A stretch of 64,000 nucleotides of DNA from Candidatus Onstottus frigus (GCA_038040445.1 JBBPIG010000007.1:74310-138309); one strand, 5' to 3'; numbered from the stretch's first letter, positions 3,178 to 62,688 are shown. Translations and numbers: made by a program. The notes: generated by a model from the sequence alone, not told the origin.

Positions 3178-4161
3178 ATGAAAGTGTTCATCAGTTGGAG
3201 TGGAGAGCGTAGTCAAGCTTTAGCGCAAACGCTCCGTGACTGGCTGCCACTCGTGCTCCACTACGTTGAACCGTGGCTGTCGGAGGCGGACATCGCCGCC
3301 GGGGAACGGTGGGCGGAGGCTGTCGCAAAGGAACTAGAGGCTTCGAATTTCGGCATCATCTGCGTTACAAGCGAGAATGTCGGTTCCCAGTGGGTTCTAT
3401 TTGAGGCCGGTGCGCTTGCGAAGTCGATGCAAGGCAGCAGAGTGATTCCACTCCTACTAGACTTAGAGTTTCGGGACATCACCGGTCCACTAGCACAGTT
3501 TCAGGCCAAGAAGGTCGAGAAATCCGGTCTGAGTGAGGTGGTTCACTCCATTAACAATGCCGCGAGCCAAGCCGTTCCTGAAGCGCGTGCTAAGCAATTG
3601 TTCGATGCCCTCTGGCCAGAGTTCGAGAAGACAATCACGTCGATACCCAAGGAAGCGTCCGCCACAAAGCATACCCGGCCTCAACACGAAGTACTTGAGG
3701 AGCTCGTCGCAAGCGTGCGCTCTCTCGATTCTCGCTTCCGCGATATTTCGGAGGAGTCACCGCGACAGATGCGATCTCGACGGTTCAAGTTTCATCCCTT
3801 CATGTTACGGGAGTTCGCTGAAATGGTGGGGGAGAAGCCAGGCGATCCGATACTGCTGCTGATTGCGGCGAGCATGTTTCGCGAGGATGCACCGTGGCTC
3901 TACGAACTCGGCATCGAGGCATACCGTGCTGCCAAGAGTGGCGTGCCTGAAGAAAGCGAGCGTACGCTACGCCGTTTCCAACGCGCCGCAGAGCTCATGG
4001 AGCGCGGCCCATTTGCTGAGGAGATGGGCCTCGATCTTAGGGGCACCCATATGATCATGAGAGAGTTAAGACATTTCTTCCCGAGCGAATCAACTGCTGA
4101 TGAGGAGAGCAAGGCAAAGAGCAGACGCAAGAAGGAAGAGCAAGAAGACGAGGGCTCGTAA
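3178..4161 (+). CDS. TIR-domain protein (N-terminal bacterial TIR, C-terminal ~160-aa helical domain of unknown function)
   Basis: 'MKVFISWSGERSQALAQTLRDWL...SEADIAAGERWAEAV...GIICVTSENVGSQWVLFEAGAL' fits the TIR pattern (FISYS-like strand, D-I-x-x-G-x-W, I-x-V-x-S-x-x-x-x-S-x-W). GGGAGG RBS lies 7 nt upstream. Charged KAKSRRKKEEQEDEGS tail. Confidence 0.7.
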   Translation: MKVFISWSGERSQALAQTLRDWLPLVLHYVEPWLSEADIAAGERWAEAVAKELEASNFGIICVTSENVGSQWVLFEAGALAKSMQGSRVIPLLLDLEFRDITGPLAQFQAKKVEKSGLSEVVHSINNAASQAVPEARAKQLFDALWPEFEKTITSIPKEASATKHTRPQHEVLEELVASVRSLDSRFRDISEESPRQMRSRRFKFHPFMLREFAEMVGEKPGDPILLLIAASMFREDAPWLYELGIEAYRAAKSGVPEESERTLRRFQRAAELMERGPFAEEMGLDLRGTHMIMRELRHFFPSESTADEESKAKSRRKKEEQEDEGS

Positions 4162-8192: not shown

Positions 8193-8675
8193 GTGACTGA
8201 AATCAAGAAGGAGACGAAACAATCTATGATCTGGGTGATGTTCGCTTTGGGCGCCGCGCTTTCGTGGGGTCTGTACGGACCCGTTCTGCACAAAGGACAG
8301 GTTGCGCTCGGCAATCCGTTCCGCGCGTTGCTCTGCGTAGGAGTCGCTTACTTTCTAATCGGCGTCCTGGTTCCGGTGATCGTGTTGGGAGCGCAGGGTG
8401 GGCTGAAAGACTTCAACAGCGGCGGCATAACGTGGGCGACGTTTGGCGGGGCGCTCGGAGCGGCGGGAGCGCTTTGCATCATCTACGCGTTCAAAGCTGG
8501 AGGCATTCCGACTTACGTGATGCCGCTGGTGTTCGGAGGCGCTCCGATCGTGAACGTGTTGTTCTCGATGTGGCAGCACCCGCCCAAGGCGTCGCCTAAC
8601 CCGCTGATCTATGTTGGCTTCGTTCTGGTGGCGATCGGCGCGGGATTGGTGTTGTACTTCAAGCCTCAGTCGTAG
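8193..8675 (+). CDS. Small integral membrane protein (4 TM, glycine-rich), unknown function
   Basis: 160 aa, four hydrophobic segments; weak resemblance to EamA/DMT half-transporters. Confidence 0.45.
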   Translation: MTEIKKETKQSMIWVMFALGAALSWGLYGPVLHKGQVALGNPFRALLCVGVAYFLIGVLVPVIVLGAQGGLKDFNSGGITWATFGGALGAAGALCIIYAFKAGGIPTYVMPLVFGGAPIVNVLFSMWQHPPKASPNPLIYVGFVLVAIGAGLVLYFKPQS

Positions 8676-8748
8676 GTCGATCCAATCGCATGAGTGAGAG
8701 CGAAATGCGCAGCAATGGATGGCGAAGCGGTTTCCGGGCTCCGGAAAT

Positions 8749-8896
8749 ACCCCAACTGAAGTTGGGGGACTTCGTCCTCCGTTGTCGTTCTTGTTTCATC
8801 CATCTCGCCCGCGAGATGGATGAAAAGTCTGGGGACCGAGATAGGCCGAGTTCCGACGTAGGTTGAACCTAACAATCCCCCAACTGAAGTTGGGGG
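8749..8896. repeat. Two copies of REP-like palindrome 'ccccaactgaagttgggg' (8749-8768 and 8876-8896) flanking a second hairpin (catccatctcg...cgagatggatg)
   Basis: Stem ccccaact/agttgggg. A third extended copy lies at 14190-14217 with a partial at 14231-14250. Confidence 0.6.
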
Positions 8897-8918
8897 GATT
8901 TCCAAAGTCCCGCGCGAC

Positions 8919-9992
8919 TCACCTGGCTATTCGAAGCATCACCTTCACCAGCACAGGGGTGCTGGGCGTGGCGTTCAAACGCAAGATCGTTTGAGGAAGC
9001 GGATCCCCTTGGGTCAGCATCCGCGAGCCGTCTCCGCCTGCCGACTTTTCTGCTTTGGTGTATGGCAGGCCCGCGCCGCCCTCAAGCTCGAATTGCTCGG
9101 CGCGCCCACCCCACTCCTTCTCCCACTGAGCCAGCTTCGCGGACGGCACGTTGACGGGCTCCGAACTGATGGGCAGGGCAGCGAGCGGTTGAGGTGCCAC
9201 GATCAAGATCAGCACTTCTCCACTATGCTCCGGGCGGCTGCGCGTCAGGGTGAAGTATGGCGGGTTGTCTTCCTGAGCCGGAAACTCGATGACCCGTCCC
9301 CCGACCACCGAGTTGTTTCCGCCGCGCGTGCGCGAGGTAGGGAAGATCAAATACGCGTCGCCAAGGCTGCCGTCGGCGTATTGCTCTCGATCGATGACGT
9401 AGAGATATCCTGTGCTCGGAGACTCGATGCTGACGCGAACACGCTCGCCTTCGCTGACGCGCGTATCGGCTTCGATTCGCTCGGCTGTCCATTCGGCGGT
9501 CTTTGATGCCTGGTGCTCGAGAATCCTTGCGTCTTTGTTGTCGGCAGGCCGCACCGGGCGCAAGCGCCACAGCGTTACGCCGATGACTGCTTCCGATGCC
9601 GACGCCGATTTGCGCAGCTCGGAAGATGAGGCCGAGCCGGTAACCGAGCGATAGGTTCGCGGTTGTTGAGGATCACGTGGCGTAGTGGATGCAGGCCGGC
9701 TCTCTTCGAGTTTCTTGACGTGCAGCCCCCGCGTCTGGTCCTGCTGTTGGGCGGAGGAATTGCGGGCGAGCAGGATCACTGCGCAGATGATGATCGCTGC
9801 CGTAGCTCGAGATGCCAGCCGGCGGCGCGCGAGGGAAGCCGCCAAAGATTCGTGATGAGCGCCGCGGTCCGCGTCACGGTCTCCTAACGATAGACCACGG
9901 CCCCGCCACGCGTGGGCCGCGTAGCGGTTACCAGGATTCCTGCTGAACATCTTCGATGAGAGCGAAGATGTACGCCGGGTCATATTCCACAT
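8919..9992 (-). CDS. DUF4384-domain protein (secreted/anchored), downstream partner of the caspase-WD40 gene
   Basis: 'GERVRVSIESPSTGYLYVIDREQYADGSLGDAYLIFP' matches the DUF4384 core (GYLYV...LFP). Hydrophobic anchor 'AAIIICAVILLA'. The start may be the ATG at 9950 instead. Confidence 0.5.
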   Translation of the reverse strand: MWNMTRRTSSLSSKMFSRNPGNRYAAHAWRGRGLSLGDRDADRGAHHESLAASLARRRLASRATAAIIICAVILLARNSSAQQQDQTRGLHVKKLEESRPASTTPRDPQQPRTYRSVTGSASSSELRKSASASEAVIGVTLWRLRPVRPADNKDARILEHQASKTAEWTAERIEADTRVSEGERVRVSIESPSTGYLYVIDREQYADGSLGDAYLIFPTSRTRGGNNSVVGGRVIEFPAQEDNPPYFTLTRSRPEHSGEVLILIVAPQPLAALPISSEPVNVPSAKLAQWEKEWGGRAEQFELEGGAGLPYTKAEKSAGGDGSRMLTQGDPLPQTILRLNATPSTPVLVKVMLRIAR

Positions 9993-10052
9993 CGAATCTC
10001 CTCAAGAGGGCCAGGTGTTTATCTCTAAGCAAGACGGCTGTAACTCCATAGA

Positions 10053-13000
10053 CTACGGCTTGGCGACGATCATCTGCTGAGTTTCCCGCTCGCGGCGATA
10101 GAAGACCCGTGGACGTTGCACGCTTCGTTTGTCCACGTCCTCCACCTTTTCCTCGCCTTCCACAAAAGCGACCTTGTGTTTGAGCCCTCGCCCTTCCTTC
10201 ATCTTCGCCTCTTGCATTCGAGGCACCCGATCGGTCGCATAATCGAGCCATTCGCGCAGCATCACCTGGCCGTCTTTGGGCTCACCGTCGGCGGCCGCGG
10301 ACTTCAGTCCTTCTTCAACCAGCGCGTAAGTCAAATATCCGTGCCCAAGTTGCTCGGCTTCCATCGCCGCCTGATAGCTCTGCGCCGCTGTCAGAATGTA
10401 CATACCCTTTTCATAAGCAAGCTGCGCCAGCCCCTTCGAATTCATTGGCCCGCGACGTTTCTCTTCGGCTTCAAGCGCCTGCCCGCTGTTGCACGCGTCA
10501 ATCACCATCAGCAGGTTCCCGGCGTCGATGCCTTCGCAAGCCTGCTCGAGCTCGAGATCCGAAACGCTGTGCGAGAGGATCGTCTTCAACCCCGCTTCGT
10601 CGATCTCGGTGCGCGCGCCCGCGTATCCGAGATCGTGAGGGATCAAGTAGAAGCGTTGCTCCTGCGCGGTGCCATGCCCGGCATAGAAAACAACCACCGC
10701 GTCTTCCGGCTCCGCGGCTTTGATTTTTTCAAGGGCTGCCGGAGCGCCCGACGGCGGTTTCGCATCCGGCGAGCCCGCAAGACGTTTCAGTGCGTACAAC
10801 AGGTTCGCTTTCGTCGCGTCGCGATCGAGCAACGTTGTGACTTCAATCTGTCCATAGCCGCCAAGCTTCCGTTGCTGGCGTTCGACCTCTTCGGTGAATG
10901 CGCGCGCGTCGGCCGCCGCGTACTTGAGGTTGTAGTCGGAGTTCGCGTATTGATTAACACCCACGGCAAGAACGTGAAGCGTCGACGCGCGCCTCAGCGA
11001 GTCGGCTCCGTTGACGGCAAGCGCCGCGTCCGGGCTTTTCACGTTGTCTCGGTTGAAGGCATATGCCGTTAGCTGATTCGGTCCGGCAACGACGCTGATG
11101 GTTGTCTCGAGGGTAGCATTCGGCTGGCCCTTGAGCACGTCGCCGCGCCAGAGCTTGACCAGCGAGCCGTTGCGGAAGAGACGCACATCCCGCGCGCCCG
11201 CTGGAGCTTCGCCGACATCGATCTTTATCTTCAGAGTCCGCGTCGAAACACTCGCGGCGTTTTGCGGATCGGCGAGCGCGAGACTCAACTTTGGTTGGCG
11301 GCGATCCTTTTGCGAGATGTCCGCGGCGGCCGCGATCTTCTTGCCGGCCAGAATGTCCGGCAGCAGCCCCGGGTAGTAATACTCGGTGAAGAAAATCTCG
11401 ACAGGTGAAACGTCGAACGTGTTAGGTGAGAACCGCCAGAGGATCTGATTCCAGCCGCCGGGTGAGCCATCGAACAATCCATCGGGTGTTACGACTAACC
11501 AGTCATCGCCTTTGTTCAAGCTGACCATCGTGGCGACAAGCGCTCCCGTTTGCGTGTTCCACAATCGCGCGCTGCCGTCGTCGCTCCCTGAAACCACAAA
11601 GCGGCCATCGCTGCTGAAGTCGACCGCCACGATCGAGCCGCCGTGCCCCGCGAGCGTGCGAAGCTCGCGGCCCGAGGACAGGTCCCACAGCTTGATAGTG
11701 CTGTCGAAACCTCCGGAGGCGAGCATACGGCCGTCAGGGCTGAACGCGAGACCGTTGACGAAATTGTTGTGCCCTGCAAGCGAGTTCAGCTCGCTTCCTG
11801 TTTGCGTGTCCCATACTTTGATCGAGAACGTCAGGTCGTCAAAGGAAAATGTGTCCGCGGCATTGGCGGCGGCAAGATTCCGTTTGGAGCCCGAGTGCGC
11901 CGAAGCGAGTCTCCGGCCGTCGGCGCTCCACGCGAGGCTGAAAACCATCATCGAGAACGTTGACTTGAGAGTGCGCAGCTCCTGCCCGGTGCTCACCTCG
12001 CGGAGCGTGATCGGCGAGTCGAATCCCGACGCTGAAGCAACGATGCGTCCGTCCGGACTGAAGGACAATATCGAACCCGAAATGGCCTCAAACCCGCCCA
12101 TCATCTGGTTTAATAAGCCCGACCGAGCAAGAGGAATCGCTTGCAGTTGCCGGCCTGTTGCCACATCGAGAAGGCGAAGATTGGTCGAGCTCTTATTGGC
12201 AGCTTTTGTTATCGGCGCGGTCACTCCCAGTGAGTCCAACACCGACATGCTGGCGCTCATATCGCCTTTCTTCATGGCCTCTTCGGCCTTCTTCATCATC
12301 TCCTGCATTTTCTTCGGGTCCTTCTGCATCTGCTCCATGATCTTGCTCATATCAGGCATTACGATGGGCTGAGCAGGCATATTGACCGGCGCTTGCGGGG
12401 ATGATTGCTGCGAAGCTTGAGGACCCGGTGCTCCGGGCTTCTGAATATCTCTCTCGACGAGAGCTACAACGCTCCCGTCTCTATTGAAGGCGGCATTTCC
12501 CAATTGTTTGCCTTGAGTCAATGACACGTTTGGCAACTCGCGGCCTGTTGCCACCTCCCAGACTTTTGCGAGCGGCTGGCTGCTGCTGCCGGCAATCACG
12601 AATTTCCCATCGCGGCTCAACAAGCAGCCTCGTTCCTGCATACCAGTCTGTCTGTGCCGAGCGTAATCATCGGGCAGAGCGACGGCGCGCCGCACTCCGC
12701 CTGTAGTCAATTCCCAGGAGCTGACTGCCTGGTGCCCTGCAAGAGAAAGCGACTTCCCATCAGGAGAGAAGGCGAGATCGCTGACCGGCATGGCCGAGCC
12801 GCTCAGCGTTCTTACTTCGCGGCCGGTCGCCGCGTCCCAGAGCTTGATCTGATTGTCGGTGCCCGAAGAAGCGATGAGCTTGCTGTCGGCGCTGAACCCG
12901 ACGCTGATGATCGTGCCGCTGTGCCCGGCAAGCGTATGCAACGTAGCACCGGAAGAAGCATCGACAAGATTGATCTTGTTGCTCTCGCTGACTACCGAAA

Positions 13001-14018
13001 GCGAGTGGCGGTCGGGACTGAAGAGAAACTTGCCGGCGAACATGATCATTGAGGAATCAGACTGGTTGGCTAACATTTTTGGAGCGGCAAAGCTCTTCAG
13101 CTCGCGCCCGGCGGCGACATCCCAGATTTTCATCGAGGCTTCGTCGCGAATCGCCAGCCACGCGCCGTCGCTGCTGAAGGCAAGGGTCGCCGAAGAGCCA
13201 GGGGATACGCCGAATTGCGTCGGGCCTGACGAGACCTTCAACGTCTGCGCTTTTCGTCCGCTCGCAACTTCCCGGAGTGTAATCTGTAGCGTTGTTTCGG
13301 CGGCGCCTTTACGCGAGACCTTCATGGTTTCGGACAGCACCGCCAACAAGCTCCCGTTAGGACTCAGCGCAATCCCATTCTGCGCCTCGATGCGGTCCTC
13401 CTTGTCGAAGGTGACCGGTTGCAGTTCCCGGCCGGCGGTAGTATCCCAGAGCCGCACCGCCGAACCGTCCGGGTTCGCTGCGGCCAGGATACGCCCATCT
13501 TCACTAAGGAGAGCCGCGAAGAAATCTTTGGCCGTCGGTATGTTCGTGCTGGCTAGCTCGCGGCCTGTCTCGACCTCCCATCGCCTGACTTTGCCGTCAG
13601 CAATCGCGGTCAGCGTGCGCCCGTCTACGCTGAACTTGAAAGGCCGCGTCAATGAGTTGGCGCCCATGGATGGAATGCCGCTGTCGAGGTGGCGCAACAA
13701 CCGGCCTGAAGCGACCTCCCACAACTTGATCGCATTGCCGATCATTCCCATCGAGGCGAGCAATCGGCCATCGGGACTGAAACTGAGTTGAGTTTGCGGA
13801 GACGTGATCCCCGCCTGTAGCAAGATCTCCGGTTTGCCCGCGCCCGATTTTGTTTGATTCGGCGTGGCATTTGCCGGGTTCGGACGAACGCCGAGGCCTC
13901 GGTCGTCTTTGGGCTTCGACTCCTGGGAGGCTGAGAGAGTCAAAGCGGCGATCGAATTGATTACCAGAAGAGCAAGCATCGGCAAGCTCAAGAAACGAGA
14001 TCGAGCGAGATGAATCAT
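10053..14018 (-). CDS. Secreted WD40-repeat protein with C-terminal caspase (peptidase C14) domain
   Basis: Signal peptide. At least 12 WD40 blades ('IKLWEVASGR', 'IKLWDAATGREVRTL', 'TIKLWDLSSGRELRTL', etc.). C-terminal caspase His/Cys dyad motifs 'VVFYAGHG' and 'MVIDACNSG'. Low-complexity P/Q/M/K-rich linker mid-protein. Confidence 0.85.
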   Translation of the reverse strand: MIHLARSRFLSLPMLALLVINSIAALTLSASQESKPKDDRGLGVRPNPANATPNQTKSGAGKPEILLQAGITSPQTQLSFSPDGRLLASMGMIGNAIKLWEVASGRLLRHLDSGIPSMGANSLTRPFKFSVDGRTLTAIADGKVRRWEVETGRELASTNIPTAKDFFAALLSEDGRILAAANPDGSAVRLWDTTAGRELQPVTFDKEDRIEAQNGIALSPNGSLLAVLSETMKVSRKGAAETTLQITLREVASGRKAQTLKVSSGPTQFGVSPGSSATLAFSSDGAWLAIRDEASMKIWDVAAGRELKSFAAPKMLANQSDSSMIMFAGKFLFSPDRHSLSVVSESNKINLVDASSGATLHTLAGHSGTIISVGFSADSKLIASSGTDNQIKLWDAATGREVRTLSGSAMPVSDLAFSPDGKSLSLAGHQAVSSWELTTGGVRRAVALPDDYARHRQTGMQERGCLLSRDGKFVIAGSSSQPLAKVWEVATGRELPNVSLTQGKQLGNAAFNRDGSVVALVERDIQKPGAPGPQASQQSSPQAPVNMPAQPIVMPDMSKIMEQMQKDPKKMQEMMKKAEEAMKKGDMSASMSVLDSLGVTAPITKAANKSSTNLRLLDVATGRQLQAIPLARSGLLNQMMGGFEAISGSILSFSPDGRIVASASGFDSPITLREVSTGQELRTLKSTFSMMVFSLAWSADGRRLASAHSGSKRNLAAANAADTFSFDDLTFSIKVWDTQTGSELNSLAGHNNFVNGLAFSPDGRMLASGGFDSTIKLWDLSSGRELRTLAGHGGSIVAVDFSSDGRFVVSGSDDGSARLWNTQTGALVATMVSLNKGDDWLVVTPDGLFDGSPGGWNQILWRFSPNTFDVSPVEIFFTEYYYPGLLPDILAGKKIAAAADISQKDRRQPKLSLALADPQNAASVSTRTLKIKIDVGEAPAGARDVRLFRNGSLVKLWRGDVLKGQPNATLETTISVVAGPNQLTAYAFNRDNVKSPDAALAVNGADSLRRASTLHVLAVGVNQYANSDYNLKYAAADARAFTEEVERQQRKLGGYGQIEVTTLLDRDATKANLLYALKRLAGSPDAKPPSGAPAALEKIKAAEPEDAVVVFYAGHGTAQEQRFYLIPHDLGYAGARTEIDEAGLKTILSHSVSDLELEQACEGIDAGNLLMVIDACNSGQALEAEEKRRGPMNSKGLAQLAYEKGMYILTAAQSYQAAMEAEQLGHGYLTYALVEEGLKSAAADGEPKDGQVMLREWLDYATDRVPRMQEAKMKEGRGLKHKVAFVEGEEKVEDVDKRSVQRPRVFYRRERETQQMIVAKP

Positions 14019-14189
14019 TACAGACCTCTTCCTTCACCGCTTACCCACGCAGGCGGCTACCAATGATCGTATGTGGATAACGATCTTAGCGGATGCCGAG
14101 TTATAAAGGACAGCGAGTTGTCTCCATCGGTGCGGGTCAGACTCTCGCGCATACGGGCACTCGCTAAGCGGTTGGTCCGTGACGCTAAA

Positions 14190-14250
14190 TACCCCCAACT
14201 GAAGTTGGGGGTATTTTAGGGTTTCTCACACAGTCTCTTCAGTTGGGGTT
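14190..14250. repeat. REP-like palindrome 'aatacccccaactgaagttgggggtatt' plus a partial second copy
   Basis: Same palindrome core as at 8749 and 8876; sits upstream of the caspase-WD40 gene start. Confidence 0.6.
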
Positions 14251-14555
14251 TTCCGTCTTTCACTTTCGTGGCTCGTATGGGTCCTCGCGGCACGCGGCCT
14301 TCCGATGCGGATTATCGAGATGGCAAGCCAGCGCCCGCCGGAGATAAGCCGCGTAGATGGACGGGCGCTCTATGCAAACAAAGGGTAGGATCCTCCTGCG
14401 CCGCATAGGACGGAGTTTGCAAAGAGGGAACAATCAGACCGATGCCGAAACAAAGCCTGTAGCAAAAACGGCAAGCCACTTAGATAACTTACGAGGCACG
14501 TCAGAGCCGTCTGTTGGGCAAGCTGTTTGATTGGCCAATCAGTCCTCCAAACCGA

Positions 14556-16937
14556 TCACGTGCCTATCGCTTGCTCAGCCGCTTGCTCTCGAATGATTAC
14601 GTCTTGTTCGCTCGTTTGCGGACGCGTGATCAGAAACATCGCGACAAGATACAATCCCGCGCCGATCATCAACGCTTGATTGAAGCCGGAGAGTATCGCG
14701 ATCACCAGCGCCGCGACTGACCCCATCACCGAGGTCGCCCCGTTCACACCCCACGCCCACGGAATAATCTCGGGCGCGTTTCGAGCCAGGATGCGTATCC
14801 CGATCGGCATCGGCATCCCCATAACCAGAGCGAGCGGCGCCATCAACACAACGGCTATCACGATTCGAAACTCGCGCGCGAGATGGACCAGTCCATAGAA
14901 GATCGGTGGAAGCGCCACGATGTAGATGAACACCAGCGCCACAACTACCATTAGCAATTTCATCAGGGCCGCGGTCAGCCGCTCTTCGCCTATTCGTCCG
15001 CTCAGGTAGCTGCCCAGCGCGCTGAACGCCAGCACCGAGAACAGCACCACCGCCAGCGAGTAAACCGGATGTCCCAGGAAGAGGATGAACTTCTGAATCA
15101 TCGCGACCTCGACGATGATAAAGCCCGCGCCCAAACAAGCGAAGTATAAAAGGTACGAAAGTTTCGTTCTCAAGCCCGTCGCAAGCGCGCGGCCTCGAAT
15201 CAGCACCAGCGGCCCGATGATGAACAGCAGCACCAGCACGCTTGTGATGGCGAACAGCGCAAACAGAATCGAAGTGCCCAGATTGGTCTTTTGCCACTCG
15301 CCCGTTGTTCCCTCGATCACGCTCCAGATGTTCGAGAGGCGAACCGAGTTGAAGAAGAACGGATTGTTGTCGCGCGTGGGCTCGACGTTTGTTTCGAGGC
15401 TTGCCCAAAGCGCGGCGGGATCCGGCGCCTCGATCATTTGCGTGAAGACGTTCGGCGGGCGAGAGAGAGGACTGAACAACAATTGGAAACCGCTGGTCTG
15501 CGCCAGGGCCTCGATGTCTCGAACTTCGTCGTCGGTGAACTCGCTGCGCTTGAAGATGTAGGTCGCCGGTGTGCGGTCGTAACCGGATCTCGCGTCGCGC
15601 ACCAGCATTATGTGCCGAGCCGGGTTCGAGATTCCAAGCTCGTCCATCATCGCGCGGGTGAGCGTGATCAATCGCAGCAATTGATCGGGCGGCTCGAAGT
15701 ACCACCGCGTCATCGTCAGCACGCCGTCGTCGGTCAGATGGGTGACGTAGTCCTTAAAGGCTTCGACGGTGTACAGATTGTTTTCGCTGAGCGAGAACGC
15801 GCCCGCCGCAGTGGCCGCCCAGGTGTCCACCATCGTAGCTTGAATGATGTCGTAGCGATCGGGCGAGTTTCTAATAAAGCTGCGGCCTTCATCGACGACC
15901 AGGCTGACGTCGGGCTGCTGATAGATCGAACCGGAATAACTCTTGAACGGCTCGGACGACATGACATCGTGAGCGATTATCGGGTTTATCTCCACCGCGG
16001 TGATGTGCTTCTGCTCGAGGACCCGCGCGGCCATCACGTCGTTGCCTCCGCCCGGACCTATTATGAGCACGTTTGCGTTGCGCTTCAGGTGGTGCGCCAA
16101 CGCGCTGAGCGAGTCTCGCGCATCCTGGTGAATCGCTGAGTTGCTCGCGTCTTTGCTGATGCCGGTCGCAGCGTCCGCGTCGATCTTGATTTCGACTCCG
16201 GTATCGAAGTCGCCTTCGACCGTGATTCGCGAAAACGAGTTCCACTTTGCAAACAGCACGCTGGTCTCCTCGAAGCCCTTCGATTTGCGAATGTCGATTC
16301 GACGAGTCGCGCTGTTGTAGACGACAAGCCCGGTCAAACCTACGGCAAGCAGAAGCGAGCAGACCGCCACCGCTCGGCTGCCGCCGGTCGAAGCGCCGAA
16401 CATCACTCCGGCAATTGCGGCGAGCGCCGAGACCAACAGGACTATGTTGATCGCCCCCATCGTGTTGAGCACCGGTATCAACAGCAAACACCCGAGCGCC
16501 GCCCCCGCCAGATCGAACAGATAGAGCTTGCTGATCTCCTTCGCAAGCCGCGTAATCGCAAGCGTCACCGCGCACCCGGCAAAGAAGAACGGCAACGCCG
16601 CCGCGCCGTAGATTCTCGCGAGTCGATAGTAGTTCTCCGGGCCGGTTTCAAACGTCAGCGGATTGGCCAGTATTACGTAAAGCGAAAACAGATTGCTGAG
16701 GGCGAAGAGCATCGCCGCGGCGCTCAGCCACTGACCGGTGCGTTCCGGTTTCAACCCGCGTTGAATGATGTAGACGAACACGCCGCTCGCGCCCGAGCCG
16801 AATAACGCAAGCGAGATCGCCATGAACGCGAAGTGATAGTACATCGTCGCGGAAAAGAGGCGAGTGAGTGAGAGTTCGAGCATCAACACCGAAAGCGTGA
16901 TCAACGATATGCCCAGAAAGATTCGTCTGCGATTCAT
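14556..16937 (-). CDS. Membrane-embedded spermidine-synthase-like protein (polyamine aminopropyltransferase fold fused to N- and C-terminal multi-TM domains)
   Basis: 'NVLIIGPGGGNDVMAARVLEQKHITAVEINP...DRYDIIQATMVDTW...LTDDGVL' is the SpeE-type Rossmann motif set, flanked by ~7 N-terminal and ~6 C-terminal TM helices. Confidence 0.75.
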   Translation of the reverse strand: MNRRRIFLGISLITLSVLMLELSLTRLFSATMYYHFAFMAISLALFGSGASGVFVYIIQRGLKPERTGQWLSAAAMLFALSNLFSLYVILANPLTFETGPENYYRLARIYGAAALPFFFAGCAVTLAITRLAKEISKLYLFDLAGAALGCLLLIPVLNTMGAINIVLLVSALAAIAGVMFGASTGGSRAVAVCSLLLAVGLTGLVVYNSATRRIDIRKSKGFEETSVLFAKWNSFSRITVEGDFDTGVEIKIDADAATGISKDASNSAIHQDARDSLSALAHHLKRNANVLIIGPGGGNDVMAARVLEQKHITAVEINPIIAHDVMSSEPFKSYSGSIYQQPDVSLVVDEGRSFIRNSPDRYDIIQATMVDTWAATAAGAFSLSENNLYTVEAFKDYVTHLTDDGVLTMTRWYFEPPDQLLRLITLTRAMMDELGISNPARHIMLVRDARSGYDRTPATYIFKRSEFTDDEVRDIEALAQTSGFQLLFSPLSRPPNVFTQMIEAPDPAALWASLETNVEPTRDNNPFFFNSVRLSNIWSVIEGTTGEWQKTNLGTSILFALFAITSVLVLLFIIGPLVLIRGRALATGLRTKLSYLLYFACLGAGFIIVEVAMIQKFILFLGHPVYSLAVVLFSVLAFSALGSYLSGRIGEERLTAALMKLLMVVVALVFIYIVALPPIFYGLVHLAREFRIVIAVVLMAPLALVMGMPMPIGIRILARNAPEIIPWAWGVNGATSVMGSVAALVIAILSGFNQALMIGAGLYLVAMFLITRPQTSEQDVIIREQAAEQAIGT

Positions 16938-19580: not shown

Positions 19581-19672
19581 CAGGATCTCTCTAGGCTAGC
19601 GCAGACTCTAGTCTGTGCGAGCCAATAGCGCAGCACAGAATTCGCCGGACACAGACTAAAGTCTGCGTCACG

Positions 19673-22015
19673 TCACTTGGCCGTTGCGGTCAGCTCGTTC
19701 GATTGAATACCCTGCGAAGTTACAACGCGTATCCGCATGGTAGTGCCGGCAGCCGGCGCCGATTGAGGCCCAATCTTGGCTGAGATGAAATCGGCCGCCT
19801 CGAAGCTCGCAAAGTCCAACGGCACCGGAGAACCGTTCGCCGTTACGGAGACCGTTCCCGCAACCGGGAAGTTTGCGCCGAAGATCTTCAGTATCAATGC
19901 GCCTGACGCTTTCTTCTTTACCTTGACGTTTGTAATCTGAGGCCCGACCAGCGTGCCCGCGACGATCTCATTGGAAAGGTCCGAGGGCGAGGGGCTGCTG
20001 TTGCGCACGCGCACGGCCAGCGGCCCGGCTCTGAACCTAATTGTTGGATTGCTGTCCAGGAAAACAGCCCTTGTAGTGGCGCCGGGCGGAGGATCGATTG
20101 TCGGACCAGATACTACGAGAGTGTCATTGATGAAAACTTGAAGATCAGACTTGAAGCCTGTGCCATTGACCACTACCACAAGATTTTCTTCTCCTGCAGG
20201 GGCCTGTTGCACCTGTGTGCCGTTAATAAGTCCGCCTCTAAACAGCACCGCCGAAGTGAGGACCGGAGTCGGCGCCTGCTCGGGCGCAAGCATGCCAAGC
20301 TTGGCCGACAGTTTCTTGCCGCTGAAGATGTAGACGTTTCCTCCGTTAAAGACTCCGTTGCCGAAGCCGTCGCCATGCATAGCGTTTGCAATGTAGTCAA
20401 TGTATCCGTCGCCGTCGACGTCCGCTCCCGTCAACCGGTAAGAAAACTCATCTTCGGTTTGCGCGCCGGCAAGTCTGAAAATGCGCACACCAGCCGGCGG
20501 ATCGTAGAACTTAATGACCGGCGGAAGGAAATCACGCTGGCCGTAGATCACTTCAGTGACCCCGGCGTCCTCGCGCTCCTCGCCATTCACTATGAATGTC
20601 CGCTCGGGGCTGCCGATAAACAGATCCGAGAGACCGTCCTTGTTTATGTCGTAGGTCCGAACCGAGTCCCCGGCGCAATCCAATACATGTTCGCCATAGA
20701 TCGACGAGATTCTTAGCCCTGATGCGTCGGGATTGGCGAGATCGATAAACGCTCCGGGCAAGTTCGCCGCGCCGTAGATGACGTAGACCGCGCCTGTCTG
20801 GCCTTTATTGTCGGGAGCCGAAGCCCGCAGCGCGCCGATTATCAAATCAGTGCGGCCATCTCCGTTCACGTCGCCGCTGTGGAGCTGCGAGCCAAGGAAG
20901 TCGAACGCGTTAGCCCCGACTACGTGGGTTGCGTTGGCAGGCGGGTTACTGAGAAGTGTGTTCGGCGGCCAGTTTTGCTGTCCGTAGATCACGTAGGCTT
21001 CGCCGCACCCAGGTCGTTGCCCGCCGAAACTCGCAGCTTTCCCGGCGTGACCATTGTCTTGGTCGCTTGGCGTGACGTAGAAACCCGAGTCGCGGTTGAT
21101 TGAGCCTCCGATAATGACGTCGCCGATCCCGTCGTTATTGATATCGCCGACTTGCAGCGCTGCGCCCCAGTGATCTTCCTGGCCCGCGCCAACTATGCGA
21201 GCGGTCCGGACTCCGGCCGGAGGGCTTGCCAGGTCGATTACCTGCGGCAGAGACAACGAGCCGAACACAATATAAGCGCCGCCGGCATGCTGGTTCCCAG
21301 CCACATTGATCTGGTCCGACCCGATGATGATGTCAGCTATCCCGTCGCCGTCGAGATCGCCTTCGTCGATCCATATTCCCATTCGCCCGCCCGGCTGCGG
21401 GCCGTAGATCGCAATGACGCCGGGTACCGGGTTGCCGTCCAGCGTGTTGAGATCCGCGTTAAGGCTGAAGGTCCGCGAGCCCAGAACTACATAAGCCGCG
21501 CCCCGGTTATCCGCGATTCCGCCGCCGGGTCCGTCCTGCAAGGCGGCTCCGATCGCCACATCGCGTATTCCGTCTCCGTTTACGTCGCCGTTAGCGGACA
21601 CGGAAGTTCCCAGCAGATCACCCGAACGCTGCCCGGTCAGCTTGAAGATGTTTGGTGGGTTTTGAGCAGCGTCGACGAAGCCACTGTCGCGTCCATCGCT
21701 CAAATAAAAACTGACTACGCCATCGTTGTCGCGGGTTCCAGTGCTGCCGTACATCCCGCAGACGATCACGTCACCGCGCCCATCCCCGTTGATGTCTCCG
21801 GCGGCAACAGGCAACCCGATGTCGCCCTGCAACCGCAACCCGCCGAACAGCACAAGCAAGCCGTCTTGATTGAAGTTTGCAGTGTCAACCGCCAGTTCAA
21901 TCGCGCCGCCTTGAGCGGTAGCTCGAATCGAGATAAGTGGCAATACCAACGAAAGAATGAGTCCGAGGATTAAACCCTTGTAACCCTTGTACGCCCTTGT
22001 ACCCTGTTTACTCAT
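19673..22015 (-). CDS. Secreted FG-GAP/VCBS-repeat beta-propeller protein with C-terminal IPT/TIG-like domains
   Basis: Signal peptide. Many 'GDVNGDGxxDxxxGA' FG-GAP calcium-binding repeats. C-terminal Ig-like repeats. Confidence 0.8.
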   Translation of the reverse strand: MSKQGTRAYKGYKGLILGLILSLVLPLISIRATAQGGAIELAVDTANFNQDGLLVLFGGLRLQGDIGLPVAAGDINGDGRGDVIVCGMYGSTGTRDNDGVVSFYLSDGRDSGFVDAAQNPPNIFKLTGQRSGDLLGTSVSANGDVNGDGIRDVAIGAALQDGPGGGIADNRGAAYVVLGSRTFSLNADLNTLDGNPVPGVIAIYGPQPGGRMGIWIDEGDLDGDGIADIIIGSDQINVAGNQHAGGAYIVFGSLSLPQVIDLASPPAGVRTARIVGAGQEDHWGAALQVGDINNDGIGDVIIGGSINRDSGFYVTPSDQDNGHAGKAASFGGQRPGCGEAYVIYGQQNWPPNTLLSNPPANATHVVGANAFDFLGSQLHSGDVNGDGRTDLIIGALRASAPDNKGQTGAVYVIYGAANLPGAFIDLANPDASGLRISSIYGEHVLDCAGDSVRTYDINKDGLSDLFIGSPERTFIVNGEEREDAGVTEVIYGQRDFLPPVIKFYDPPAGVRIFRLAGAQTEDEFSYRLTGADVDGDGYIDYIANAMHGDGFGNGVFNGGNVYIFSGKKLSAKLGMLAPEQAPTPVLTSAVLFRGGLINGTQVQQAPAGEENLVVVVNGTGFKSDLQVFINDTLVVSGPTIDPPPGATTRAVFLDSNPTIRFRAGPLAVRVRNSSPSPSDLSNEIVAGTLVGPQITNVKVKKKASGALILKIFGANFPVAGTVSVTANGSPVPLDFASFEAADFISAKIGPQSAPAAGTTMRIRVVTSQGIQSNELTATAK

Positions 22016-22119
22016 TTGACCTCGAGATGAATTGGCCCGCGCGAGAGTGTCTCTCCGTGGGCTGATGATTATACAATGCGGTCGAGCCGCATTGCGAACG
22101 TTGCGTCGAGCGGTGGGTT

Positions 22120-22350
22120 CTTGGTTTCTAGTTTGTGGTTTCTAGTTTCTGGTTGTATCCGTGCGAATCCGTCAAACCCGTGTGATCGGTGGTCTATTAG
22201 TTCGTAAGAATCGCATTGCCAGCGCCGAATACACCACGGATCGACACTGAATCGGCGGACTTGCGCGGATACAACCAGAAACCAGAAATCGGAAACCAGA
22301 AACTAGAAGCCGGCCGCCAACCATAAACTAGAAACCAGAAACTAGAAACC
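22120..22350. repeat. Composite repeat: ~112-bp structured core (22161-22272) flanked by inverted tandem arrays of 'ctagtttctggtt' / 'aaccagaaactag'
   Basis: The core recurs as a direct repeat at 25211-25321 (~85% identity). The flanking short tandem units are mutually inverted. Confidence 0.7.
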
Positions 22351-22403
22351 AGATCGGGATGGAAGAAAAGTGAAGCCGTGGCCGTCTAATCAACGATTTA
22401 TGG

Positions 22404-23003
22404 ATGGCTACACTTATGGAGCAGCTCGCAATAATGAGCGAACGCCAAACAGAGGCTGAAACAATCGAGGCTTGCAAACAGGGTGACCGGGATGCCTTTC
22501 ACGACCTGTTTGAAGCACACAAAGATCGGGTGTACACGATCGCGTTTCATTACAGCGGCGACGAGGCAATGGCGCGCGATGTGTGCCAGCAGGTCTTTCT
22601 GAAGCTCTTCACGAGCATCAACCAGTTTCGCGAGGACTCACAGTTCACGACCTGGCTCTATCGCATAGTAGCTAACGCGTGCGCCGACGAGCACCGGAAG
22701 CGAAAACGGTTCGTGCCGTTCAGCCCCGAGATCGAGGCGAGGAATATGGTGGCGAAGGGATCTCAAGAGGAAGCCTATAACAAGAGACAGGTGGCCGAGT
22801 CGGTTCGCGGCGCGATCGCCGAGCTGACACCGAAGCTGCGATTGCCGATCTTGCTCAAATATGTAGAGGGGCTGTCGTACGACGAGATAGCGGAATCGCT
22901 CGGGCTCTCCATAGGCACGGTATCCTCGCGGCTTAATCGGGGACACAAGATGCTGGCGCGCAAGCTGGATCATCTGCGCGGCGAGTTGGCAGCAGGGGAA
23001 TGA
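22404..23003 (+). CDS. ECF (sigma-70 family group IV) RNA polymerase sigma factor
   Basis: Region 2 'VYTIAFHYSGDEAMARDVCQQVFLKLF...FTTWLYRIVANACAD' and region 4 'LKYVEGLSYDEIAESLGLSIGTVSSRLNRG'. Confidence 0.9.
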   Translation: MATLMEQLAIMSERQTEAETIEACKQGDRDAFHDLFEAHKDRVYTIAFHYSGDEAMARDVCQQVFLKLFTSINQFREDSQFTTWLYRIVANACADEHRKRKRFVPFSPEIEARNMVAKGSQEEAYNKRQVAESVRGAIAELTPKLRLPILLKYVEGLSYDEIAESLGLSIGTVSSRLNRGHKMLARKLDHLRGELAAGE

Positions 23004-24094
23004 AGATGTTTACAAAGCATGTGATCAAAAAACTATCGGCATACTGCAACGGCGAGTTGCCGGCTCAGGAGGCGCGCGGCGTGCGCGAACACCTGCTGGC
23101 GTGTGAGCGATGCCGCAACCAGCACGGCGAAATAAAGCTCGGTATGCAGTTGGCGCAGCAGCTCCCGCCGGCAACGGCTCCGGCCGGGATGTGGAGCGAG
23201 ATCGAGGCGTTGTTGGATGAGCGTTCGCCTCGGCCGGACTTCCAACCGAAGGCTCCGAGGCTTGCCTTCGGCTTCAGTTGGTTTCGCGTTGCCGCTGCCA
23301 CCGCCGTGCTCCTGGTCGCGGTGACGATTGGATTGATGTGGTTCAATTACGCTCCGGGAGTTAAGTGGCCTGTTGAAAGTTCCGGGTCGGTACGAATCGA
23401 TGGCAACCACATCAGTGACAAGGGGAGCATTGCCGCCGGCGAAACGCTCGAGACCGACAATTCATCGCGAGCACGGATCACGATAGGCGTGATCGGAGAG
23501 GTTGAACTGGATCCGAACTCGCGCATACGACTGGTGCAGACTCGACTCACGGAACATCGTCTCGCGCTCGATCGTGGCCGAATGAGCGCGAAGATCACAG
23601 CGCCGCCACGGTTCTTCTTCGTCGACACGCCCTCAGCGGTGGCGATCGACCTCGGCTGCGCGTACACGTTCGAGGTGGACGATGCGGGTCGAAGCTTCTT
23701 GCACGTCACTTCAGGTTGGGTCGAGCTGGTTGGCAATGGACGTGAGTCGTACGTCCCGATCGGCGCGATGTGTGAGGCGCGGCTTGGATTCGGGCCGGGG
23801 ACGCCCTACTTCGACGATGCTTCTGAAGATTTCGTGCGCGCGCTCGAGAAGTTCGATTTCGAAGGCGGCAGCCATTCAGAGTTCAGCACAGTGTTGAAAG
23901 AGTCTCGCGAGCGCGACACGTTCACGTTGTGGCATCTGTTATCGCGGGTCGAGGGTGACCGGCGAGTTCAGGTGTTAAACCGGATGATCGAGCTGGTCGG
24001 TTTGCCGAACGGCGTGACGCGAGAAGGAACGCTGCAGCTCGATCCGAAGACGCTCGAAGCCTGGAAGGATGAGATGGACACGGTGTGGTTCTAG
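23000..24094 (+). CDS. Anti-sigma factor (zf-HC2 N-terminal, TM, FecR-like C-terminal domain)
   Basis: 'CNGELPAQEARGVREHLLACERCR' is a zf-HC2 motif. TM segment 'VAAATAVLLVAVTIGLMWF'. Overlaps the sigma gene stop (ATGA). Confidence 0.75.
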   Translation: MKMFTKHVIKKLSAYCNGELPAQEARGVREHLLACERCRNQHGEIKLGMQLAQQLPPATAPAGMWSEIEALLDERSPRPDFQPKAPRLAFGFSWFRVAAATAVLLVAVTIGLMWFNYAPGVKWPVESSGSVRIDGNHISDKGSIAAGETLETDNSSRARITIGVIGEVELDPNSRIRLVQTRLTEHRLALDRGRMSAKITAPPRFFFVDTPSAVAIDLGCAYTFEVDDAGRSFLHVTSGWVELVGNGRESYVPIGAMCEARLGFGPGTPYFDDASEDFVRALEKFDFEGGSHSEFSTVLKESRERDTFTLWHLLSRVEGDRRVQVLNRMIELVGLPNGVTREGTLQLDPKTLEAWKDEMDTVWF

Positions 24095-24097
24095 AAT

Positions 24098-25207
24098 ATG
24101 ACCCGAGGTAGACGATTGCGGAAACACTCGGCTTGGATAGCCGGCGCGCTGCTCATCCTGCTGATCATTTCAAACGTCCACCACCTCTCACGCTCGGGCA
24201 AGCCCGCTGACCAAAATCGCGGAGCACCGCCCGCAAGCGAATCGTTAACGCCGATCGTCGAGCAGTACGCGCCGTTCGTCTACGCTGAGACGGGCAAAAG
24301 CGGCGGCCGGCAGGACGTCATCTCGAACATTGACTTCGACGGCGATCTCGAGGGCAACAACAACTGGGAGAACTTCGATCGTTTCGTGCTGAAGCCAACT
24401 GTCTACTACGCCGTTCTGGAAACCGAGACTCATTACTTCATCGCGTATCACTTGTTTCACCCGCGCGATTGGAACCGCTTCACCGTGTGGCTGAACGACA
24501 CTCACGAAAACGACGGCGAGAACTTTCAGGTGGTCGTCCGTAAGAGTGACGGTCGCGTTGTGCTGCTGTGGACCCAGGCTCATTACCGCAGCAGCGTGTA
24601 CACGATTTCCGGCTCAGGCATCGAGTCTGGCGCGACACGAATGGCAGGCCAGTTTCAAACCGTCGACTCGAACAGTGTGCCGAGCGACGAGGGAACTCAC
24701 GCTTGTGTATTCGTGGAAGCGGAGGGTCACGGCATCTATGGAACGCTGGACTCGGACAGCGAAGTGCGCGTGAACGCGGACGGCACTTTCGGCTTCAAAG
24801 GCGGGATCGGTCTGCTGTTCCGCCCGGCGCGAGCGGGTGAAGAGGTGAAGGAGCCGGAGAACACAAGCTCAGGTCAGGTCGCTTATCAGCTCGATTCAAC
24901 AACGATGAAGCTGTGGCCGTTGCTTCGAGATGGAAGATTGACCGGCGACGGCAAGCTGCTCGACGGGTCATATCGTTATCAGGACGAGCTTGTAGACATC
25001 GAAGAGGTCCCGCGCTTTTACGATGGGAACCGATTCAGCGGGCCGTTCGGGAGCGATCGAGGCATCTCCCCCTTCGCTCTTGATTTTTCGTTCGATCGCG
25101 GAACGCTGGGCGCGCTGTTCTTCAACCCGGCGAAGCGATACGCTGAAGCGCTGAAGATCACTGGTCCGTGGTCACATGAATATACCAACTATCCGTTTGC
25201 GAGATGA
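24098..25207 (+). CDS. Hypothetical membrane-anchored protein co-transcribed with the sigma/anti-sigma pair
   Basis: 369 aa, N-terminal TM anchor. No recognised motif. Confidence 0.45.
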   Translation: MTRGRRLRKHSAWIAGALLILLIISNVHHLSRSGKPADQNRGAPPASESLTPIVEQYAPFVYAETGKSGGRQDVISNIDFDGDLEGNNNWENFDRFVLKPTVYYAVLETETHYFIAYHLFHPRDWNRFTVWLNDTHENDGENFQVVVRKSDGRVVLLWTQAHYRSSVYTISGSGIESGATRMAGQFQTVDSNSVPSDEGTHACVFVEAEGHGIYGTLDSDSEVRVNADGTFGFKGGIGLLFRPARAGEEVKEPENTSSGQVAYQLDSTTMKLWPLLRDGRLTGDGKLLDGSYRYQDELVDIEEVPRFYDGNRFSGPFGSDRGISPFALDFSFDRGTLGALFFNPAKRYAEALKITGPWSHEYTNYPFAR

Positions 25208-62531: not shown

Positions 62532-62688
62532 GCAAAGAGCAAAGAGCAAAGAGCAAAGAGCAAAGAGCAAAAGGCAAAGGGCAAAGGGCAAAGAGCAAAG
62601 CGCAAAGGGCGGCGGTTCGACATCTTCTCTAGCTATGTTCCTCTTTACTCTTTGCTCTTTGCTCTTTGCCCTTTGCGCACTATAATGA
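62532..62688. repeat. Inverted arrays of the heptamer GCAAAGA (about 11 copies forward, about 6 reverse-complement copies)
   Basis: 'gcaaagagcaaagagcaaagagcaaagag...' at 62532-62608 and 'ctctttgctctttgctctttgccctttgc' at 62641-62688. Upstream of the yacL-like gene. Confidence 0.8.

Follow-up and report, generated by a model that had tools for sequence, protein, structure and literature searches.

Among prokaryotic caspase homologues, 10.9% carry WD40 repeats, and some possess N-terminal helices that are probably signal peptides (PMC3501461). DUF4384 has been described as a frequent companion of orthocaspases (PMC7475262) and as the C-terminal domain of one group of Csx30 proteins, Csx30 being the substrate of the CHAT protease Csx29 (bioRxiv 10.1101/2022.08.17.504292). 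Repetitive extragenic palindromic (REP) sequences, in the form of head-to-head dimers or REPINs, are found between convergent or co-directional genes (PMC3733652, PMC3116915). Here we analyse a locus of Candidatus Onstottus frigus (GCA_038040445.1 JBBPIG010000007.1:74310-138309) at which a gene for a large WD40-caspase is followed by a gene for a DUF4384-type protein, and in which copies of a short palindrome lie on both sides of the two genes. The locus occupies positions 8,749 to 14,250 of a 64,000-nucleotide stretch of DNA, hereafter termed the window, from whose first letter all positions are counted. The gene pair adds a hitherto uncharacterised member to the multidomain caspases of bacteria. 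With good confidence, we consider the locus as a whole to be best explained by a conserved, apparently exported protease-partner pair that lies beside unrelated and recently inserted repeats of the REP/REPIN type.

The predicted protease, its partner gene and their relatives

The large protein is predicted to be a clan-CD cysteine endopeptidase of the caspase/metacaspase (C14) family, set behind two WD40 propellers and an Ig-like domain. The two genes and their parts are distributed as follows (aa, amino acids; ORF, open reading frame).

10053..14018, minus strand: WD40-caspase gene, 1321 aa, with signal-like N-terminus, two propellers, Ig/Fn3-like sandwich, C14 caspase domain and QRPRVFYRRE tail
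13926..14018, minus strand: predicted Sec-type signal peptide of the caspase, codons 1-31, with basic n-region, 20-residue hydrophobic core and SAS/QE
13887..13907, minus strand: DDRGLGV motif (in K-D-D-R-G-L-G-V), conserved, right after the caspase signal peptide
11502..13835, minus strand: WD40 region, aa 62-839, 14 blades
12240..12359, minus strand: low-complexity insert rich in Met, Lys and Gln, aa 554-593, separating blade 9 from blade 10, no Pfam match
11034..11303, minus strand: Ig/Fn3-like beta-sandwich, ~aa 906-995, N-terminal to the protease domain, from the AlphaFold2 model and Foldseek matches to Fn3-like modules
10209..10985, minus strand: caspase (Peptidase_C14) domain, ~aa 1012-1270
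10674-10676, minus strand: His1115 codon, in YAGHGT
10491-10493, minus strand: Cys1176 codon, in DACNSG
10443-10463, minus strand: K-R-R-G-P loop after the catalytic Cys, at the position of the caspase intersubunit linker
8919..9992, minus strand: partner gene, ORF of 357 aa; conserved protein ~300 aa, start near codon 50-56
9750-9827, minus strand: partner signal-like segment RRRLASRATAAIIICAVILLARNSSA/QQQ
9717-9737, minus strand: partner QTRGLHV motif
~9192-9452, minus strand: partner DUF4384 core

A first-pass annotation of this DNA had already read the 1321-aa product as a signal-peptide-bearing WD40 protein with a C-terminal caspase domain, and these assignments are borne out, the signal peptide as a prediction. 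The WD40 profile (PF00400) matches at 157 bits and, when the C-terminal third was scanned alone, Peptidase_C14 (PF00656) matched with an E value of 2e-11 and 44.4 bits against a cut-off of 21.4, CHAT matching the same third more weakly. None of 30 orthologues at 65-90% identity departs from the putative catalytic residues His1115 and Cys1176. The C-terminal 482 residues were modelled with AlphaFold2 at a mean predicted local distance difference test (pLDDT) of 74.8; the model comprises an Ig/Fn3-like sandwich followed by an alpha/beta domain, and its best Foldseek matches in the PDB are the MALT1 paracaspase and caspase-7/-3 (probability 1.0, E ~1e-6 to 1e-4); a PDB sequence search with the caspase region found no solved relative. 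The WD40 array, put earlier at 12 or more blades, in fact contains 14 motifs of the x-W-D/E-x-x-x-G-R type (13 by regular expression, with SSWELTTGG added by eye), a number that would suffice for two seven-bladed propellers, and the C-terminal QRPRVFYRRE tail is conserved. Within the second propeller lies a 40-residue Met/Lys/Gln-rich insert (MPDMSKIMEQMQKDPKKMQEMMKK...), which is kept in orthologues and recalls Met-rich periplasmic metal-binding or chaperone-like segments.

Export of both proteins is well supported by their predicted N-termini. The caspase N-terminus, MIHLARSRFLSLPMLALLVINSIAALTLSAS/QE, has by inspection the n-h-c layout of a Sec signal peptide and can be divided into a basic region, a hydrophobic core and a small-residue cleavage motif (MIHLARSR-FLSLPMLALLVINSIAALTL-SAS/QE), as can that of the partner (RRRLASR-ATAAIIICAVILLA-RNSSA/QQQ). 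Of 97 full-length caspase orthologues, 96 have a hydrophobic 12-mer at the N-terminus, as do 99 of 108 partner orthologues. The 20-residue h-region of the caspase could alternatively be a signal anchor. A lipoprotein was considered and rejected, no lipobox being visible on inspection of either signal segment. To our knowledge, no member of this family of exported WD40-caspases has been studied experimentally.

The partner belongs to a family of 1036 clusters at 50% identity (E up to 1e-3). PF14326 is assigned to many of its orthologues in precomputed annotation, and its distant fused relatives pass the DUF4384 threshold at 27.8-33.1 bits. The modelled partner fold (pLDDT 67.9) is all-beta; its only matches are to generic sandwiches of the Ig-like or macroglobulin-like kind. 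The stretch that extends the partner ORF at its 5' end (window 9833-9992) is unconserved; in P0130 and P0125, translation of the corresponding DNA gives four tandem copies of NRYAAKPRRAHVVLSIG, which hints that the DNA separating the caspase and partner genes is repetitive.

Conservation of the pair was assessed from the proteins and from gene order. Caspase orthologues form more than 100 full-length clusters (45-98% identity, ~1300-1380 aa) whose sources, where named, are Blastocatellia, Pyrinomonadaceae or Acidobacteriota, under the designation 'caspase family protein'. Seven genomic contexts were compared, listed here with the identity of their caspase to that of the window.

L126, 98% identity: gene order as in the window
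L122, 90% identity: as L129, except that another WD40-caspase paralogue separates the caspase from the partner
L123, 90% identity: contig stops at the caspase gene, so that the partner falls outside coverage
L124, 80% identity: as L129, except that another WD40 paralogue separates the caspase from the partner
L130, 78% identity: pair adjacent, other neighbourhood
L129, 76% identity: glycosyltransferase, 793-aa membrane protein, caspase, partner
L125, 65% identity: pair adjacent, other neighbourhood

In six of the seven, the two genes are either adjacent (L125, L126, L129, L130) or split only by the second WD40 paralogue (L122, L124), and the partners of the compared contexts align end to end. 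The pair thereby presents itself as a vertically inherited two-gene unit of Blastocatellia (Acidobacteriota). Horizontal acquisition was rejected because the GC content is unremarkable (0.57-0.63 in the pair vs 0.55-0.58 in the flanks) and because no tRNA gene and no integrase or recombinase was found near the pair.

The neighbourhoods of some relatives have features of their own. In L122, four extra genes, including Metallophos and PhoD, lie between the 793-aa gene and the caspase gene, bordered by a relic of the 3' end of the partner gene and a duplicated 3' end of the 793-aa gene (3305-3499 and 9477-9711); the second WD40-caspase paralogue follows, and the locus is recombinationally active. 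In L130, genes for an extracytoplasmic function (ECF) sigma factor and a zf-HC2 anti-sigma factor (8353-9821) stand directly upstream of the pair, an arrangement seen in this one relative only. Genes for nSTAND ATPases occur nearby in two relatives, L124 (2786-6045) and L130.

Linkage of the two proteins and a possible mode of action

A link between the two genes is directly supported by a metagenomic representative of 1924 aa, P0340, in which the partner module is naturally fused to WD40, Ig-like, caspase and TPR parts. The order is an N-terminal anchor, the partner module, WD40 repeats, an Ig-like domain, the caspase domain (with SSHGY and DACHS) and TPR repeats; the partner module matches at 44% identity (E 7e-61) and the WD40/Ig-like/caspase part with an E value of 1e-121. 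P0340 can be taken as a Rosetta-stone fusion of both window genes. In other long members of the partner family, the partner module is C-terminal to TIR, Ser/Thr kinase, nucleotide cyclase, CHAT or metallophosphoesterase (Metallophos) domains. Since a single hydrophobic helix precedes the module in all seven fusions (7/7), separating it from the fused domain, the module would behave as an extracytoplasmic part, and the arrangement indicates that it forms the outward-facing portion of single-pass receptors. This placing agrees with the predicted export signal of the free-standing partner. We infer that the two genes are functionally linked and that their products act together, and we regard a 'periplasmic protease-partner unit' as reasonably likely, if somewhat less so than the overall explanation given at the outset.

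The active-site sequence bears on what such a protease might cleave. A D-x-C motif before the catalytic Cys is the arrangement of metacaspases and paracaspases and goes with Arg/Lys specificity at P1; caspases proper carry Q-A-C-x-G. Because the window protease has the D-x-C motif common to metacaspases and paracaspases, it is probably Arg/Lys-specific as well. Three conserved R-G sites are candidates for Arg-specific processing, all of them in regions predicted or expected to be flexible. The first is the DDRGLGV motif just past the caspase signal peptide, and the second is Q-T-R-G-L-H-V at the equivalent position of the partner, a few residues past its signal peptide; both fit R-G-[LIV]-x-[VIA], and the pattern R-[GI]-[LIV]-x-[VIA] recurs in 58 of 97 caspase orthologues and 99 of 108 partner orthologues. 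The third is the E-K-R-R-G-P-M loop directly after the catalytic Cys, which is invariant and falls below a pLDDT of 50 in the AlphaFold2 model. Taken together, the D-x-C motif and the conserved R-G sites lead us to propose an exported zymogen that would be matured by Arg-specific cleavage.

As a working model, both products would be exported to the periplasm or cell envelope and act together there, with the partner serving as a ligand-binding adaptor or as a substrate and the propellers as a docking platform. The protease, Arg/Lys-specific and made as a zymogen, would probably be matured at the conserved R-G sites, and in its mature form would act with, or on, the DUF4384 partner in the cell envelope. 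The specific scheme of processing by Arg cleavage is a tentative proposal, and one that we hold to be doubtful. Less likely still is its most elaborate version, a self-contained periplasmic proteolytic switch in which cleavage of the linker at K-R-R/G would activate the zymogen, which would then trim itself and its partner at R/G-[LIV]-x-[VI]. Were it true, the switch would turn a cue from the envelope, perceived through the beta-sandwich and the propellers, into a signal or into remodelling of the envelope, and the pair would be an extracytoplasmic counterpart of Craspase-Csx30 or of metacaspase activation.

A quite different reading places the WD40-caspase in the cytoplasm, as a conflict or abortive-infection effector of the STAND/EACC1/CHAT type whose hydrophobic stretch is a membrane anchor or an artefact of gene calling. 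In its favour, NF047832 ('caspase, EACC1-associated type') matches weakly at 50.6 bits, and the PADLOC 'caspase' model and CHAT give weak matches too; there are also the nSTAND genes within 10 kb in L124 and L130 and the tandem paralogues in L122 and L124. However, the NF047832 score is far under its cut-off of 140, the WD40-caspase is without an NTPase domain, and the signal-like N-terminus is kept across the family and is found on the partner too. The topology of the fused relatives also makes the partner module extracytoplasmic, and the pair is a stable chromosomal one across a class rather than part of a patchy island. Among the known anti-phage caspase/CHAT models, PADLOC gave only generic 'caspase' and HEAT-ARM matches for the caspase and none for the partner. 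We consider a cytoplasmic effector very unlikely and retain the exported protease-partner pair as the preferred reading of the two genes.

The palindromes and their turnover

Palindromes do flank the pair, as the first-pass annotation had reported with positions a few bases off. The 18-mer CCCCAACTGAAGTTGGGG occurs exactly at 8750-8767, 8878-8895 and 14193-14210, where none would be expected by chance in the 64-kb window, and a half copy, CTTCAGTTGGGG, lies at 14237-14248. No further copies were found in the window by exact search, nor were degenerate copies found elsewhere in it with an nhmmer profile of the repeat unit. The copies form two elements.

8735..8912, no strand: degenerate REPIN-like doublet, with hairpins 8750-8767 and 8878-8895, between a convergent EamA-like gene and the partner gene
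14181..14250, no strand: single REP unit, with hairpin 14193-14210, extended stem 14187-14216 and conserved tail GTATTTTAGGGTTTCTCACACAGTCTCTTCAGTTGGGG

In the doublet, the hairpin at 8878 is preceded by the head GTAGGTTGAACCTAACAATC, a perfect 15-bp central hairpin lies at 8794-8825, and the whole folds into one long hairpin (single-stranded DNA fold, z = -6.8). The single unit sits in a 538-bp spacer that separates the caspase gene from the gene for the 793-aa membrane protein, and its conserved tail ends in the sequence at 14237-14248 that had been taken for a partial palindrome. In these respects the window copies match the published descriptions of REP dimers and REPINs.

Beyond the window, the 18-mer was sought in a census of 185,579 species genomes (596 Gb), in which all counts are lower bounds. 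At least 120 stretches contain it, compared with the ~17 chance matches that by our own arithmetic are expected for any 18-mer, and the matches are strongly clustered by genome, as in the following metagenome-assembled genomes (MAGs).

Blastocatellia MAG SMAG_U10123: at least 30 eight-kb blocks with the 18-mer
MAG labelled 'Clostridia' (SRP119689_co1_191): at least 9 eight-kb blocks
other Blastocatellia MAGs: at least 7, at least 4 and at least 3 eight-kb blocks

The second of these is 74-80% identical in nucleotide sequence to window 19672-25207, and the Blastocatellia REP doublets occur in it; the taxonomic label is almost certainly an error, and the MAG, CAZJQQ01, is to judge from its sequence a relative of the window. 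('Uncultured Clostridia bacterium' CAZJQQ01 is the source of loci L011, L012, L015, L020, L026, L032, L082, L087 and L094.) The unit consists of a head, cGTAGGyTGAAaCTAAAgaAC, the hairpin and a tail, GTATTrCTgGAGTTTTCACACAGTCTCTgcGTTGGTGGGA. Eighteen inverted head-to-head doublets, mostly with 166-175 bp spacing, are arranged around a long, conserved, GC-rich central hairpin, so that each doublet is a palindromic element of ~290 nt. Only 8 of 71 copies (11%) fall in open stretches of at least 200 codons, compared with 80% of random positions. GTAGG or CTAGG is kept in the head, 16-17 nt from the stem, and is present at the window copy 8878 and absent at 8750 and 14193. From this distribution, the 18-mer appears to be the core of a lineage-wide, extragenic REP/REPIN-like family of non-autonomous repeats, and the earlier description of the palindromes as REP-like is confirmed by the multi-copy, extragenic, inverted doublets of the related MAGs.

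The positions of the hairpins, downstream of convergent genes and between co-directional genes, would also suit operon-specific regulatory elements (terminators, attenuators or mRNA-stabilising stem-loops) selected at this locus. REPs are known as RNA elements (PMC3733652), the extended stem of the 14193 copy is bordered by A- and T-rich runs, and pairing of the 5' arm with the tail end CTTCAGTTGGGG could give an alternative structure. However, a promoter/terminator scan called none of the three hairpins, only the 14193 copy having a short TATTTT, and an Rfam scan of 8600-14700 with E up to 1 returned no match. As RNA, the upstream unit folds with no more than modest stability (z = -3.1), the unit is dispersed at unrelated loci in several genomes, and the orthologous spacers of relatives are without it. 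Locus-specific regulatory hairpins are thus a quite unlikely explanation, and we keep to dispersed repeats of the REP/REPIN type.

Comparison with relatives indicates that these repeats are of recent arrival. The spacer upstream of the caspase aligns with that of L122 except for a ~70-nt insertion that is exactly the tail-plus-hairpin unit. In L126, L127 and L128, which are of the same species as the window (~97.6% nucleotide identity), the 4-nt loop of the upstream unit is inverted, TGAA vs TTCA on the same strand (window 14200-14203; L126 9816-9819), and the spacer around the flipped loop is otherwise nearly identical between strains; such a flip is expected if, in vivo, the two arms recombine or the template is switched between them. 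These three strains also have, downstream of the partner, a different, decayed remnant in place of the window doublet. In the 'Clostridia'-labelled relative, a doublet (L011 818-1009) lies by an FG-GAP gene, immediately beyond the part alignable to window 19672-22154, and no palindrome was found at the matching window position. The local copies appear to be insertions at the level of species or strain: the repeats come and go, and the genes stay.

The first-pass annotation had raised the further possibility that the pair is a mobile or recombining cassette with the palindromes as its ends. The three exact copies in the window do all flank the pair, and gene order differs at exactly both spacers: upstream, L122 has four additional genes, and downstream, both L122 and L129 have other genes than the window. 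However, only two genes lie between the repeats, neither of them a transposase or integrase; the repeats are single units of a genome-wide family; composition is not anomalous, and no tRNA gene is nearby. In L122, L124, L126 and L129 the pair keeps the same 793-aa gene and glycosyltransferase gene, three of these contexts being without the palindrome. In L122, L124, L125, L129 and L130, whose caspases are 65-90% identical to that of the window, the pair is present with neither a palindrome (up to 3 mismatches) nor a match to the repeat-unit profile within 10 kb. A cassette bounded by terminal repeats was rejected on this ground, the repeats being the variable part, and a cassette of any kind is exceedingly unlikely, the repeat being generic to the lineage and the pair being kept in relatives that lack it, which are in essence the two observations that the first-pass annotation had named as refuting a cassette. 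Where repeats belong to a genome-wide REP family, their lying on both sides of a gene pair does not speak for its mobility. The preferred reading thus remains that of an unrelated repeat family beside a conserved gene pair.

The 18-mer is also associated with Y1 transposases elsewhere. An identical copy flanks a 143-aa Y1_Tnp gene in L007 (5908-6549; Pfam E 1e-26) and a Y1_Tnp-like gene in L045 (4911-5673), these loci being from two other phyla, and near-identical hairpins lie beside REP-associated tyrosine transposase (RAYT) genes, ACCCAACTGAAGTTGGGT in L146 (300-925) and CCCCATCTTCAGATGGGG in L156 (~2140). Around ~80 metagenomic relatives of the transposase, the commonest hairpins have a variable 7-bp stem and then C-TGAA-G or C-TAAA-G, and adjoin a constant AAACCGTTGAAACGGTTT hairpin. 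The 18-mer is multi-copy, with quite different flanks, in Planctomycetota, Vulcanimicrobiota, Calditrichota, Cloacimonadota and Burkholderiales, probably because the hairpin shape is common to one set of Y1 transposases. The C-TGAA-G-looped hairpin may be the recognition element of one RAYT clade across many phyla, and the repeats a cross-phylum REP superfamily. As cognate RAYTs of the Blastocatellia unit, P0255, itself from Blastocatellia, was ruled out on account of its different hairpin, and P0267 and P0253 on account of unrelated contexts.

Two further repeats in the window lie outside the locus. A second inverted-repeat family at 1424-1657, with arms GCATAAAGCCACGGGTGAGTCCGCGAACCCGTG and its complement ~200 nt apart, is also found in a Blastocatellia MAG (L046). 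At 62534-62676, arrays of the heptamer GCAAAGA are inverted to form a long imperfect palindrome; in L028 they occur in both orientations.

Several points weigh against the combined reading of an exported protease-partner pair beside unrelated REP/REPIN-type repeats. Enzyme activity, specificity and partner interaction are predictions from sequence and structure; export, joint function, substrate specificity and processing sites are what we infer, and export was called from by-eye layout and hydropathy alone. The neighbouring gene, named DUF4384 in the first-pass annotation, does adjoin the caspase gene and is of that type, but the window protein itself scores 25.0 bits against the DUF4384 profile, slightly under the gathering cut-off of 27. 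Where its translation starts is ambiguous: orthologues begin near codon 50-56, and in this species the first ATG is preceded by a GAGGAG Shine-Dalgarno sequence, a start that would give 53 extra N-terminal residues. With respect to the repeats, neither 84 RAYT loci nor a tblastn search of the collected loci yielded a RAYT bearing the head/tail unit of Blastocatellia, and none of 80 metagenomic RAYT loci carries that unit; because no transposase flanked by that unit was found, REPIN membership of the Blastocatellia unit is likely but incomplete. The repeat count for the source organism is that of the 64-kb window, the genome-scale counts being those of related MAGs. Within these 64 kb, all three exact copies fall in the two spacers flanking the pair, which, among ~55 spacers, is by a rough and post hoc estimate a coincidence of ~4% (~1 in 25). 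Since both repeat-bearing spacers coincide with gene-order differences in L122 and L129, the REPs may mark, or promote, local rearrangement; that tendency is a general property of such repeats and not of this gene pair.

The locus has implications for both of its components. A large family is now defined of bacterial caspases that are apparently exported and have a DUF4384 partner to which they are genetically linked, and the natural fusion together with the candidate cleavage sites makes the pair easy to approach biochemically. DUF4384 emerges as a probable extracytoplasmic module common to TIR, kinase, cyclase and CHAT receptors. Finally, a REP/REPIN-like family that is variable between strains is documented in Acidobacteriota.

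Comparison with known systems

The nearest relatives of the large protein are the orthocaspases and metacaspases (MEROPS C14; PMC3501461, PMC7475262), with which it has in common a p20-type His-Cys dyad, the metacaspase-like D-x-C and WD40 repeats, and among which N-terminal helices or signal peptides occur in a minority and DUF4384 is a recurrent companion. The topology was earlier called unusual, which overstates the case, as caspase homologues with WD40 repeats, and ones with probable signal peptides, had already been surveyed (PMC3501461). Unlike the described members, the window protein has its propellers before rather than after the protease, is without a NACHT or AAA module and is apparently exported as a whole, and its DUF4384 moiety is a separate, apparently co-exported protein. 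MALT1, the best structural match, likewise joins a caspase fold to an adjoining Ig-like domain and has D-x-C before the catalytic Cys. However, the two are only 10-14% identical in sequence, the Ig domain lies N-terminally in the window protein and C-terminally in MALT1, and MALT1 is a eukaryotic, cytosolic protein with death and Ig domains and no WD40 repeats.

Among secreted proteases, the gingipains and other clan-CD enzymes (C25, C11) are exported, as the window protein appears to be, and likewise combine a caspase-hemoglobinase fold with Ig-like accessory domains, but they belong to other MEROPS families, use other secretion signals (the C-terminal domain of the type IX secretion system, T9SS) and have no WD40 repeats. 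For the pairing itself, the type III-E Craspase, in which the TPR-CHAT protease Csx29 acts on its substrate Csx30, offers a clan-CD protease paired with a separate protein and sets a precedent for reading a DUF4384 protein as the cognate partner or substrate of such an enzyme (bioRxiv 10.1101/2022.08.17.504292). Craspase is cytoplasmic, RNA-guided and CRISPR-linked, whereas the window pair is without a Cas gene and has predicted export signals on both proteins; as for an ECF sigma/anti-sigma pair, one stands upstream in L130 alone among the relatives.

The repeats compare most closely with the REP/REPIN-RAYT systems and their GTAG-tagged REP dimers (PMC3116915, PMC3733652). Both are short, GC-rich, extragenic, multi-copy hairpins that pair into inverted doublets, whose structured spacer is conserved and which can fold up as a single long hairpin; both lie between convergent or co-directional genes and show insertion polymorphism among strains, and the identical hairpin stands by Y1-transposase genes in two other genomes. 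The window-type doublet differs in its large size (~290 nt), in its conserved tail of 40 nt, in having GTAGG 16-17 nt from the stem rather than abutting it, and in its low density in the window.

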